5,861 nt of DNA from a virus. Its lineage: Duplodnaviria; Heunggongvirae; Uroviricota; Caudoviricetes. This document shows positions 879 to 5,861 of the stretch, in pieces. The DNA lies in the IMG/VR virus record IMGVR_UViG_2534681663_000011; one strand, written 5' to 3'. Made by a program: the position numbers and the translations under genes. Under the pieces are notes generated by a model. The model did no database searches, was not told the DNA's origin, and saw only the letters and a list, made by a program, of their open reading frames with translations. The stretch's first letter is position 1. The number at the start of each line of letters is the position of its first letter.

Positions 879-1766
879 ATGGGTAAAGGCAGCAGTAAGG
901 GGCATACCCCGCGCGAAGCGAAGGACAACCTGAAGTCCACGCAGCTGCTGAGTGTGATCGATGCCATCAGCGAAGGGCCGGTTGAAGGTCCGGTGGATGG
1001 ATTAAAAAGCGTGCTGCTGAACAGTACGCCGGTGCTGGACAGTGAGGGGAATACCAACATCTCCGGTGTCACGGTGGTGTTCCGGGCCGGTGAGCAGGAG
1101 CAGACACCGCCGGAGGGATTTGAATCCTCCGGCTCCGAGACGGTGCTGGGTACGGAAGTGAAATACGACACGCCGATCACCCGGACCATCACGTCGGCAA
1201 ACATCGACCGTCTGCGCTTTACCTTCGGTGTGCAGGCACTGGTGGAAACCACCTCAAAGGGGGACCGGAATCCGTCGGAAGTCCGCCTGCTGGTTCAGAT
1301 ACAGCGTAATGGTGGCTGGGTGACGGAAAAAGACATCACCATTAAAGGCAAAACCACCTCGCAGTATCTGGCATCGGTGGTGGTGGGTAACCTGCCGCCG
1401 CGCCCGTTCAATATCCGGATGCGCAGGATGACGCCGGACAGCACCACAGACCAGCTGCAGAACAAAACGCTCTGGTCGTCATACACCGAAATCATCGATG
1501 TGAAACAGTGCTACCCGAACACGGCACTGGTCGGCGTACAGGTGGATTCGGAGCAGTTCGGCAGCCAGCAGGTGAGCCGTAATTATCATCTGCGCGGGCG
1601 TATTCTGCAGGTGCCGTCGAACTATAACCCGCAGACTCGGCAATACAGCGGTATCTGGGACGGAACGTTTAAGCCAGCATACAGCAACAACATGGCCTGG
1701 TGTCTGTGGGATATGCTGACCCATCCGCGCTACGGCATGGGGAAACGTCTTGGTGCGCGGATGTGA
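879..1766 (+). CDS. J: J N-terminal fragment (295 aa), ended by a premature TGA
   Basis: The ORF translation matches the lambda gpJ N-terminus over its whole length up to ...WCLWDMLTHPRYGMGKRLGA. The same frame reads J-like sequence (KWALYVIGQYCDQSVPDGFGGTEPRITC) immediately after the stop, which indicates a local frame-neutral indel created the stop. Confidence 0.8.
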   Translation: MGKGSSKGHTPREAKDNLKSTQLLSVIDAISEGPVEGPVDGLKSVLLNSTPVLDSEGNTNISGVTVVFRAGEQEQTPPEGFESSGSETVLGTEVKYDTPITRTITSANIDRLRFTFGVQALVETTSKGDRNPSEVRLLVQIQRNGGWVTEKDITIKGKTTSQYLASVVVGNLPPRPFNIRMRRMTPDSTTDQLQNKTLWSSYTEIIDVKQCYPNTALVGVQVDSEQFGSQQVSRNYHLRGRILQVPSNYNPQTRQYSGIWDGTFKPAYSNNMAWCLWDMLTHPRYGMGKRLGARM

Positions 1767-2065
1767 AAATGGGCGCTGTATGTCATCGGCCAGTACTGCG
1801 ACCAGTCGGTGCCGGACGGCTTTGGCGGCACGGAGCCGCGCATCACCTGTAAGCTACCTGACCACACACGAAGGCGTGGGATGTGCTCAGTGATTTCTGC
1901 TCGGCGATGCGCTGTATGCCGGTATGGAACGGGCAGACGCTGAGTTCGTGCAGGACCGACCATCGATAAGGTGTGGACCTATAACCGCAGTAATGTGGTG
2001 ATGCCGGATGATGGGCCCTTCCGCTACAGCTTCAGCGCCCTGAAGACCGCCATAATGCCGTTGAG

Positions 2066-2425
2066 GTGAACTGGATTGACCCGGACAACGGCTGGGAGAC
2101 GGCGACAGAGCTTGTTGAAGATACGCAGGCCATTGCCCGTTACGGTCGTAACGTCACGAAGATGGATGCCTTTGGCTGTACCAGCCGGGGGCAGGCGCAC
2201 CGCGCCGGGCTGTGGCTGATTAAAACGGAACTGCTGGAAACGCAGACCGTGGACTTCAGCGTGGGTGCCGAAGGGCTTCGCCATGTACCGGGCGATGTCA
2301 TTGAAATCTGCGATGATGACTATGCCGGTATCAGCACCGGTGGTCGCGTGCTGGCGGTGAACAGCCAGACCCGGACGCTGACGCTCGACCGTGAAATCAC
2401 GCTGCCATCTCCGGCACCACGCTGA
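2066..2425 (+). CDS. J: J internal fragment, in a different frame from the N-terminal fragment
   Basis: The ORF uses a GTG start as listed in the track. Its translation matches the middle of gpJ (about residues 385-500 of lambda J). The J-like reading in this frame begins about 24 nt upstream at roughly 2042 (EDRHNAVEV). It ends at the TGA at 2423-2425 after ...ITLPSPAPR, where J similarity continues in another frame. Confidence 0.7.
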   Translation: MNWIDPDNGWETATELVEDTQAIARYGRNVTKMDAFGCTSRGQAHRAGLWLIKTELLETQTVDFSVGAEGLRHVPGDVIEICDDDYAGISTGGRVLAVNSQTRTLTLDREITLPSPAPR

Positions 2426-2712
2426 TAAGCCTGGTTGACGGAGGGATCCGGTCAGCGTGGAGGTTCAGTCCGTCACCGACGGCGTGAAGGTGAAAGTGAG
2501 CCGGTTCCTGACGGCGTTGCGAATACAGCGTTGGGGGCTGAAGCTGCCGACGTGCGCCAGCGCCTGTTCCGCTGGTGAGTATCCGTGAGAACGACGACGG
2601 CACGTATGCCATCACGCCGTGCAGCATGTACCGGAAAAAGAGCCATCGTGGATAACGGGGCGCACTTTGACGGCGACCAGAGCGGCACGGTAATGGTGTC
2701 ACGCCGCCAGCG

Positions 2713-4344
2713 GTGCAGCACCTGACCGCGAAGTCACCGCAGACAGCGGGGAATACAGGTGCTGGCCGCTGGGACACGCCGAAGGTGGTGAAGGGCGTGA
2801 GCTTCCTGCTTCGCCTGACCGTGGCAGCGGATGACGGCAGTGAGCGGCTGGTCAGCACGGCCCGGACGACGGAAACCACATACCGCTTCACGCAACTGGC
2901 GCGGGAACTACAGGCTGACAGTCCGGGCGGTAAATGCGTGGGGCAGCAGGGCGATCCGGCATCGGTATCGTTCCGGATTGCCGCACCGGCAGCGCCGTCG
3001 CGGATTGAGCTGACGCCGGGCTATTTTCAGATAACCGCCACGCCGCATCTTGCGGTTTATGATCCGACGGTACAATTTGAGTTCTGGTTCTCGGAAACGC
3101 GGATTACCGATATCAGGCAGGTTGAAACCACAGCCCGCTATCTTGGCACGGGGCTGTACTGGATAGCCGCCAGTATCAATATCAGGCCGGGCCATGATTA
3201 TTACTTTTATATCCGCAGTGTGAACACCGTTGGCAAATCGGCATTCGTGGAGGCTGTCGGTCAGCCGAGTGATGATGCATCAGGCTATCTGGATTTTTTC
3301 AAAGGCGAGATAGGGAAAACCCATCTGGCTCAGGAGCTGTGGACGCAGATTGATAACGGTCAGCTTGCGCCTGACCTGACTGAAATCAGGACGTCCATAA
3401 CGGATGTCAGCAATGAAATAACACAGACCGTCAATAAGAAACTGGAAGACCAGAGTGCAGCGATCCAGCAGATACAGAAGGTTCAGGTTGATACAAATAA
3501 TAACCTGAACAGCATGTGGGCAGTGAAGCTGCAGCAGATGCAGGACGGACGCCTTTATATTGCGGGTATCGGTGCCGGTATTGAGAACACCCCTGACGGC
3601 ATGCAGAGTCAGGTGCTGCTGGCAGCAGACAGGATTGCGATGATTAATCCTGCGAATGGCAACACAAAGCCGATGTTTGTTGGTCAGGGCGATCAGATAT
3701 TCATGAATGAAGTGTTCCTGAAACGCTTGACGGCCCCCACCATTACCAGCGGCGGTAATCCTCCGGCATTTTCCCTGACATCAGACGGGAGACTGACGGC
3801 GAAAAATGCGGATATCAGTGGCAGTGTGAATGCGAACTCAGGAACGCTCAACAATGTCACGATTAACCAGAACTGTACGATTAAGGGCATGCTGGAGGCG
3901 ACCCAGGTCAGAGGAGATTTCGTTAAAGCTGTATCAAAAGCCTTCCCGAAAAAAGTCGGTACGTGGGGTAACACGGAAACACCAAACGGTACGGTTACAG
4001 TCACCATCAGCGATGATCATAACTTTGACCGCCAGATTATTATTCCGCCCATTATTTTTAACGGTATAGCGTATGACGATCCGGGGAGCGGAAATAACCC
4101 AGGAGGCACGCGATACACGGGTTATGGTTTTGAAGTTCGCAAAAACGGCGTATTAATCGCATCCAGAGAAACTAAAGGGGCCATTCCCGGTAGTTACAGT
4201 GCAGTTATTGATATGCCGAGTGGCAGGGGAAGCGTCACTCTGGAGTTTAAGATTTTCCAGAAAGGCAATCAGGGGGCAGGCAATATCACCGACTGTACGG
4301 TGATTGTGACCAAAAAAGCCGCTTCCGGCATCAGTATTCGTTGA
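2713..4344 (+). CDS. J: J C-terminal fragment (543 aa) including the distal, presumed receptor-binding region
   Basis: Long ORF in frame 1 ending at the TGA at 4342-4344. It contains conserved gpJ blocks ([126 protein letters not shown]). The first 12 or so codons are out of the true J frame. A compensating frameshift pair lies near 2900-2945. Confidence 0.8.
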
Positions 4345-4363
4345 AATATTTATAACCCCAATA

Positions 4364-4392
4364 AAGGGCGTCAGGAATGACGCCTTTTTTAT
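4364..4392 (+). terminator. Rho-independent terminator between J and lom
   Basis: Stem GGCGTCA (4367-4373), loop GGAA, stem TGACGCC (4378-4384), followed by TTTTTT (4385-4390). An AAA tract precedes the stem and can extend the pairing. It lies 20 nt after the J stop. Confidence 0.7.
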
Positions 4393-4414
4393 TGCAGAAA
4401 AGCGAGAGGTAATT

Positions 4415-5014
4415 ATGCGTAAAGTTTGTGTAGCAATTTTGTCCGCAGCCATTTGTCTGGCCGTATCCGGTGCGCCTGCATGGGCGTCTGAACATCAGTC
4501 CACGCTGAGCGCGGGGTATCTTCATGCCTCGACGAACGTCCCCGGCAGCGATGATCTGAACGGGATTAACGTGAAATACCGTTATGAGTTTACGGACACA
4601 CTGGGGCTGGTGACGTCATTCAGCTATGCAGGAGACAAGAATCGCCAGCTGACCCGTTACAGCGATACCCGCTGGCATGAAGATTCCGTTCGTAACCGCT
4701 GGTTCAGCGTAATGGCGGGGCCGTCTGTGCGCGTGAATGAATGGTTCAGCGCGTATGCGATGGCGGGTGTAGCTTACAGCCGTGTGTCGACTTTCTCCGG
4801 GAATTATCTTCGCGTAACTGACAACAAGGGGAAAAAGCACGATGTGCTGACCGGAAGTGATGACGGTCGCCACAGCAACACGTCTCTGGCGTGGGGGGCT
4901 GGCGTGCAGTTTAACCCGACCGAATCCGTGGCCATTGATATTGCTTATGAAGGTTCCGGCAGTGGTGACTGGCGCACTGACGGTTTCATCGTGGGTGTCG
5001 GTTATAAATTCTGA
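4415..5014 (+). CDS. lom: Lom-like outer membrane protein (Ail/Lom/PagC family beta-barrel)
   Basis: 199-aa ORF with a GAGAGG ribosome-binding site 6-11 nt upstream. The N-terminus is a signal peptide (MRKVCVAILSAAICLAVSGAPAWA). The C-terminus (AYEGSGSGDWRTDGFIVGVGYKF) and internal blocks (GINVKYRYE, SVMAGP, SAYAMAGVA) match lambda Lom as I recall it, and the terminal Phe is typical of outer-membrane beta-barrels. Its position between J and stf is as in lambda. Confidence 0.88.
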   Translation: MRKVCVAILSAAICLAVSGAPAWASEHQSTLSAGYLHASTNVPGSDDLNGINVKYRYEFTDTLGLVTSFSYAGDKNRQLTRYSDTRWHEDSVRNRWFSVMAGPSVRVNEWFSAYAMAGVAYSRVSTFSGNYLRVTDNKGKKHDVLTGSDDGRHSNTSLAWGAGVQFNPTESVAIDIAYEGSGSGDWRTDGFIVGVGYKF

Positions 5015-5078: not shown

Positions 5079-5861
5079 ATGGCAGTAAAGATTTCAGGTG
5101 TACTGAAAGACGGCACAGGAAAACCGGTACAGAACTGCACAATCCAGCTGAAAGCAAAACGTAACAGCACCACGGTGGTGGTGAACACGCTGGCCTCAGA
5201 AAATCCGGATGAAGCCGGGCGTTACAGCATGGACGTTGAGTACGGTCAGTACAGCGTTATTCTGTTGGTGGAAGGATTCCCGCCGTCACATGCCGGGACC
5301 ATCACCGTGTATGAAGATTCCCGACCCGGTACGCTGAATGATTTTCTCGGTGCCATGACGGAGGATGATGCCCGTCCGGAGGCACTGCGCCGTTTTGAAC
5401 TGATGGTGGAAGAGGTGGCGCGTAACGCGTCCGCGGTGGCACAGAACACGGCAGCCGCGAAGAAGTCAGCCAGCGATGCCGGCACATCAGCCCGTGAGGC
5501 GGCAACCCATGCGACTGATGCTGCAGGCTCAGCACGCGCAGCCAGCACGTCAGCCGGACAGGCCGCTTCGTCGGCTCAGTCAGCGTCTTCCAGCGCAGGA
5601 ACGGCATCAACAAAGGCCACTGAAGCGGAGAAAAGTGCTGCCGCTGCAGAGTCCTCAAAAAGCGCGGCAGCTACCAGTGCCGGTGCGGCGAAAACGTCAG
5701 AAACGAATGCGGCAGCGTCACAACAATCAGCAGCCACTTCTGCATCCGCCGCGACCACGAAGGCGTCAGAAGCAGCCACCTCAGCCCGGGATGCGGCGGC
5801 CTCAAAAGAGGCAGCGAAATCATCAGAAACGAACGCATCATCAAGCGCCAGTAGTGCCGCT
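5079..5861 (+). CDS. stf: Side tail fiber protein, N-terminal part (3' end lies outside the window)
   Basis: The ATG at 5079 opens a frame that runs without a stop to the window end (261 codons). It was not in the ORF track because it has no stop inside the window. The translation (MAVKISGVLKDGTGKPVQNCTIQLKAKRNSTTVVVNTLASENPDEAGRYSMDVEYGQYSVI...TITVYEDS...MVEEVARNA...) matches the lambda Stf N-terminus as I recall it, followed by the characteristic Ala/Ser/Thr-rich repeat region. Confidence 0.85.
   Translation, partial: MAVKISGVLKDGTGKPVQNCTIQLKAKRNSTTVVVNTLASENPDEAGRYSMDVEYGQYSVILLVEGFPPSHAGTITVYEDSRPGTLNDFLGAMTEDDARPEALRRFELMVEEVARNASAVAQNTAAAKKSASDAGTSAREAATHATDAAGSARAASTSAGQAASSAQSASSSAGTASTKATEAEKSAAAAESSKSAAATSAGAAKTSETNAAASQQSAATSASAATTKASEAATSARDAAASKEAAKSSETNASSSASSAA

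Follow-up and report, generated by a model that had tools for sequence, protein, structure and literature searches.

The C-terminal receptor-binding domain of protein J in a lambdoid prophage tail-tip block is of the phage 434 allelic type and most likely targets OmpC

The C-terminus of the tail tip attachment protein J sets the host specificity of lambdoid phages, and once lambda J is replaced by the J protein of phage 434, the phage binds to OmpC, which also serves 434 as receptor (PMC3509688, PMC11101478). LamB is the receptor of lambda itself and OmpC that of the 434 class (PMC11101478), and 434 J has also been treated as OmpC-targeting in other work (PMC12502783). An identity profile of the two proteins shows ~98% identity over residues 1–972 and ~38% from residue 973 onward; hence, the host-range switch from LamB to OmpC in lambda h434 maps to the module of the receptor-binding domain (RBD). 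For the lambda gpJ RBD (residues ~977–1132), solved structures represent the closed (PDB:8xck) and the LamB-bound (PDB:8xcj) states, and four bottom loops have been described (PMC11101478); the names of the fiber domains used below (helical shaft, beta-prism) follow the same study. Solved structures are also available for the RBD of A8 gpJ713, known here from the PDB entry title, both closed (PDB:9wca) and with OmpC G17 of Escherichia coli EDL933 (PDB:9wcb).

The window considered here, i.e., the whole stretch of DNA that was analyzed, is identical to contig AQDJ01000090.1 (5861 bp) over its full length, which belongs to the draft assembly GCA_000354975.1, and it represents a lambdoid prophage tail-tip block. 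It comprises the 3′ end of K (28–279), gene I with an open frame (177–818 or 216–818), gene J (879 to 4344), which sits between I and lom, an intact lom gene encoding an outer-membrane protein of the Ail/Lom type (4415–5014, plus strand; Pfam PF06316, full length, E = 2.4e−121), and the N-terminal part of the side tail fiber gene stf (5079–5861, plus strand). The latter begins with MAVKISGVLKDGTGKPVQNCT, has no stop codon and is open to the contig end; in relatives it is annotated as stfR, and after approximately residue 110 its translation continues as a long low-complexity stretch rich in Ala, Ser, and Thr. Both contig ends lie within genes, K at the start and stf at the end, a pattern expected of a repeat contig whose limits are the points at which prophage copies become different.

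The RBD occupies positions 3859–4341 of the plus strand (161 codons, followed by the stop codon at 4342–4344) in the frame of the open reading frame 2713–4344. In a BLASTP comparison with residues 977–1131 of lambda J, 63 of 166 positions are identical (38%, 17 gap positions, E = 2e−29), while the 150 residues directly upstream of the RBD retain ~90–95% identity to lambda J. The domain is therefore a clear homologue of the lambda J C-terminus, yet strongly diverged, exactly as an earlier note on this DNA, made from the sequence alone, had claimed. Near-identity to lambda J residues 977–1132, contact loops included, is what a lambda-type LamB-binding domain would show and what the note itself had named as contradicting its claim; at 38% identity with 17 gap positions it is excluded. 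The scattered lambda J motifs that the note had listed as retained, DDHxFDRQI, DMPxGRG, and KK.A.GIS (KKxxxGIS), are all real, being invariant or nearly so in all RBD classes that were aligned. Only the proposed span, 3860–4344, needs adjustment, as it starts one base past the codon boundary at 3859 and runs to the third base of the stop codon.

The domain matches Pfam family PF12421 (Ig_GpJ_C), the C-terminal receptor-binding domain of tip attachment protein J, with 94.1 bits against a gathering cut-off of 26.2 bits (E = 9.9e−27, profile positions 1–134 of 135), and in the domain order over 2941–4341 of the window (Ig_J_second, Phage_Tail_Tip, Ig_GpJ_C) it occupies the extreme C-terminal position. 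From an alignment of 11 sequences, AlphaFold2 gives an all-beta model of moderate confidence (pLDDT 75.8, pTM 0.73), the loops being its weakest parts, which shows the Ig-like beta-sandwich known from the gpJ RBD structures. When this model is compared with the PDB in Foldseek, the four best matches are the gpJ RBDs 9wcb, 9wca, 8xck, and 8xcj (TM 0.73–0.76, E ~1e−11), all subsequent matches having E of 1e−4 or weaker, and the PDB search with the RBD sequence yields the same gpJ entries. The structural comparison with the lambda J RBD proposed in the note thus gives the same fold, with TM 0.73–0.75. Taken together, the window RBD and the lambda RBD share the Pfam family, the Ig-like fold, the core motifs, and the place at the tip of a trimeric fiber, but they are only 38% identical, and each of the four predicted contact loops contains indels. 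Among solved structures, the best match in both sequence (E = 7e−32) and fold is A8 gpJ713; its RBD belongs to a different class, with ~42% identity to the window RBD and other loop lengths.

The indels and variable columns that distinguish RBD classes fall into four alternate loops, at residues 34–39, 74–83, 105–110, and 137–145 of the domain, whereas the loops at the opposite end of the beta-sandwich carry the invariant motifs DDHxFDRQ, NG, and DMPxGxG. Given the alternating topology of the beta-sandwich and the bottom loops of lambda gpJ, these four variable loops, all encoded on the plus strand, are likely to be receptor-facing and to lie at the distal end of the fiber. The first predicted loop, L1 (GTWGNT, 3958–3975, residues 34–39), is flanked by predicted strands (DSSP), coincides with an indel and a variable column across RBD classes, and is two to six residues longer than in other classes. 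The predicted loop L2 (4078–4107, residues 74–83) is six residues longer than in lambda; the putative L3 (TKGAIP) spans 4171–4188 (residues 105–110); and the candidate L4 (NQGAGNITD, 4267–4293, residues 137–145) is shorter than in lambda and holds G139, replaced by Arg in phage 434.

A search of the C-terminus against characterized J proteins, suggested by the note as a check, identifies the domain as the phage 434 allele of the J RBD. The RBD is identical to residues 977–1137 of 434 J (UMO75286.1) at 156 of 161 positions (97%) without gaps; for the J C-terminus of lambda h434 imm21, a hybrid phage, the identity is 96.3%. The five substitutions that lead from the window to 434 are N43D, R123G, I132V, Q134H, and G139R. 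The two J proteins agree in RBD length and in the junction with lambda-like sequence (the recombination boundary relative to lambda J is at approximately residue 973), and both genes are followed by a J–lom terminator of the same type; they differ in the shaft, where the window carries a module, 28 residues longer, that is absent from 434. Moreover, the J C-termini of nine phage records are 100% identical to the window RBD, among them those of mEp332, vB_EcoS-569R4, PhiR34_1, ev243, Kati, phiSTEC1575-Stx2k, PhiR42_1, and PhiR68_2, and those of several Stx2 phages are 99.4% identical. In several of the phages with an identical RBD the whole K–I–J–lom–stf region is 96–97% identical to the window at the nucleotide level; in mEp332 and other such phages J is annotated as intact, whereas J of the window carries a cluster of deletions (see below). 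We conclude, with a probability of about 0.85, that this segment is the C-terminal RBD of a lambdoid J protein in its 434 (h434) allelic form and that the porin it recognizes is most likely OmpC rather than LamB.

The suggestion of the note that the receptor is other than LamB is supported by the same 97% identity to J of phage 434, which uses OmpC, and on this ground we infer that the window allele would use OmpC as well. That the domain might still bind LamB, as lambda does, is very improbable: although it shares with the lambda RBD the fold and the conserved core motifs, the overall identity of 38% speaks against this, as do the indels that occur in each of the four predicted contact loops, and the near-identical 434 allele represents the classical switch away from LamB (PMC3509688, PMC11101478). 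LamB specificity was rejected at this level of identity to lambda J.

Another possibility is that the domain belongs to the 434 class, but that its five differences from 434, including the one at position 139 in a predicted contact loop, shift the specificity, so that only certain OmpC variants, or a different general porin such as OmpF, would be bound. Since G139 lies in the predicted loop L4 and N43 adjoins L1, both being changed relative to 434, a shift in fine specificity may have occurred; the few differences within the 434 class are concentrated at or close to the predicted distal loops (KKVGTW vs. KQAGTW/KRAGTW, YDDPG vs. YSDPG/YDNPG, QKGNQG vs. HKGNQR), and for lambda J, point mutations that broaden the range to OmpF are known (PMC11101478). 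Still, we consider such a shift unlikely, given the 97% identity to 434 and the fact that the recorded host of phages carrying the identical RBD is K-12 MG1655, the background in which 434 uses OmpC; phages that carry the entire module are active and form plaques on K-12, and evidence of a different receptor was not found. Our literature search yielded no receptor experiment on this exact allele or on phages with the identical RBD (mEp332, mEp460, and the ECOR-derived PhiR phages), and the GpJ classes treated in a receptor-prediction preprint of 2026 are all different from that of the window.

In the A8 structures 9wca and 9wcb, released in 2026, another J RBD class ("A8 gpJ 713") is seen in complex with OmpC of E. 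coli EDL933. If phi330 (PMC12502783) is counted as well, the J RBD classes reported to use OmpC number at least three, with ~35–45% mutual identity. As RBDs with ~40% identity may share a receptor (OmpC for 434, phi330, and A8) or differ in it (LamB for lambda), specificity is not a simple function of the class (PMC12502783).

The boundaries of the 434-type segment are sharp. In the nucleotide alignment the window abruptly diverges from lambda at approximately 3851–3866 and converges again only at the ribosome-binding site of lom near position 4400; the three-way nucleotide alignment of the window, lambda, and 434, together with the protein identity profile, places the mosaic junction between lambda-like and 434-type sequence at 3851–3866 (plus strand). 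Hence, the start of the divergent region given in the note coincides with a true mosaic junction. Downstream, the 434-type sequence runs past the J stop codon through positions 4345–4400, including an intrinsic terminator between J and lom (4367–4393, plus strand), and lambda homology resumes at the lom ribosome-binding site, so that the unit of recombination consists of the RBD and the terminator. The terminator, a part of the swapped module, is formed by the hairpin GGCGTCA-GGAA-TGACGCC (4367–4384) followed by the T-run TTTTTTATT; the hairpin was read directly from the sequence; the scan detected it in the minus-strand reading only. The annotation of phage 434 has a terminator at the corresponding position, and the window differs from lambda in this stretch. 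A cassette of ~545 nt, comprising the RBD, the J stop codon, and the J–lom terminator, has been swapped onto an otherwise lambda-like J.

The RBD is carried by the tail-tip fiber region of J with its alpha-helical shaft and beta-prism (3460–3846, plus strand; Pfam PF09327 Phage_Tail_Tip, E = 2.9e−31). Upstream of the RBD, a second mosaic module, a variant of the helical shaft and upper fiber (3262–3690, plus strand), is 28 residues longer than the corresponding part of lambda and 434 J. Its identity to these two proteins in consecutive 40-column blocks is 22/40, 5/40, 18–19/40, and 30/40 (12–75%), and it is 100% identical to J of E. coli SE11. Given this second module, J of the window is a three-part mosaic.

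The note had qualified its prediction by the proviso that J be functional, and this proviso matters, as 23 small deletions upstream of the RBD break J as sequenced. In the N-terminal two thirds of the gene (879–2940, plus strand) residues 1–293 are intact, after which breaks of the frame recur from 1756 to 2939. A comparison with the intact J of E. coli SE11 by ungapped tblastn reveals ~16 frame changes at 1757–2941, with clean frames on both sides, and the nucleotide alignment to strain ET82 resolves them into 23 deletions of 1–4 nt and no insertions, all within 1756–2939; in total, 31–32 bases are missing. These deletions are not tied to homopolymers, and substitutions are not elevated in this stretch. 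Hence, instead of the single open frame of ~1130–1165 codons expected of a functional J, the contig contains a broken one, and the RBD, as sequenced, cannot be delivered on a functional fiber. The RBD itself is undamaged and has 100% nucleotide identity to intact genes.

Outside 1756–2939, the window and ET82, the closest match among complete genomes, differ in length at four places only: at position 613, in gene I, the window lacks one 7-nt repeat unit CCCTAAA present in ET82, and at 3949, 4272, and 4893, in the J RBD and lom, the differences are single extra bases in homopolymer runs. As K, I, J, and lom of ET82 are all annotated as frameshifted, while the I frame of the window is open, we attribute these four differences, which look like assembly errors, to ET82.

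Two explanations of the deletion cluster were weighed. If J were a true pseudogene, its RBD would be an intact remnant without a role. The lesions themselves, 23 deletions of 1–4 nt causing ~16 frame changes between 1756 and 2939, are what this reading has in its favor, as is their absence from all 5426 complete E. coli genomes, where the best match to the deletion-bearing stretch reaches 96.8%; an exact 67-mer across four of the deletions likewise has no match among the GTDB species representatives. On the other hand, all 23 lesions are deletions within 1.2 kb, while the other 4.7 kb of the window have none relative to ET82, the sole further differences being the repeat unit at 613 and the three homopolymer bases, all of which go with annotated frameshifts of ET82. 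Neutral decay would not be so localized, and it is an unlikely cause of frameshifts that are exclusively deletions clustered in such a short stretch; the substitutions, which are not elevated there, and the 100% nucleotide identity of the RBD to intact genes also argue against this reading. Furthermore, J-like sequence occurs at a median of three places per E. coli genome, and a draft contig of such multi-copy sequence is the setting in which errors of a collapsed-repeat consensus arise. As the lesions are of one kind and sharply localized, and the contig of multi-copy sequence stands alone, we regard a collapsed-repeat consensus artifact as more likely than pseudogenization. The frameshifts in J are probably an assembly artifact, and a genuine pseudogene is the weaker possibility, although one that deserves some weight.

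One could also imagine that the deletions are real and that the intact 3′ part of J (2941–4341) is expressed alone in the lysogen as an OmpC-binding protein, which would mask the receptor against superinfection or have some other host-side use. The gpJ713 fragment used for structural work, which is soluble and forms trimers, is the counterpart of this part of J. We nevertheless consider such a role extremely improbable.

By analogy with the structures of lambda gpJ in complex with LamB (PMC11101478) and of A8 gpJ in complex with OmpC, the following mode of action may be proposed for an intact virion. Three J chains would form the central fiber, with three Ig-like beta-sandwich RBDs at its tip, and the four variable loops of each chain would reach into the extracellular opening of a porin trimer, most likely OmpC for the window allele. 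Binding to the porin would spread the bases of the RBDs apart, and this movement, transmitted upward through beta-prism and helical shaft, would open the tail tip and lead to DNA ejection. The lambda-type side tail fiber protein Stf has also been reported to bind OmpC (PMC12312913). If this holds for stf of the window, OmpC would be the target of both the side fibers and the central fiber in a phage that carries the block.

The window allele is not rare. Among 5426 complete E. coli genomes, 2113 (~39%) contain the 486 nt of the RBD, 565 records matching at 99% or more, and in the protein database numerous clusters from E. coli, E. albertii, and Shigella bear the name "host specificity protein J". 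At least six other RBD classes occur on otherwise similar J proteins; this variety is the well-known swapping of J tips as modules, and the window allele is an ordinary member of it. The 434-type allele is already known, named, and very common, and the divergence from lambda observed here is that of the textbook h434 host-range module rather than a new one.

In practical terms, the tail tip of the prophage in this contig can be labeled as 434-type, probably OmpC-dependent, while frameshifts in J of a draft contig should not be taken as biology before the reads have been checked. Beyond annotation the finding has little significance; it is a textbook-like example of how lambdoid phages exchange the receptor-binding cassettes of J as modules.
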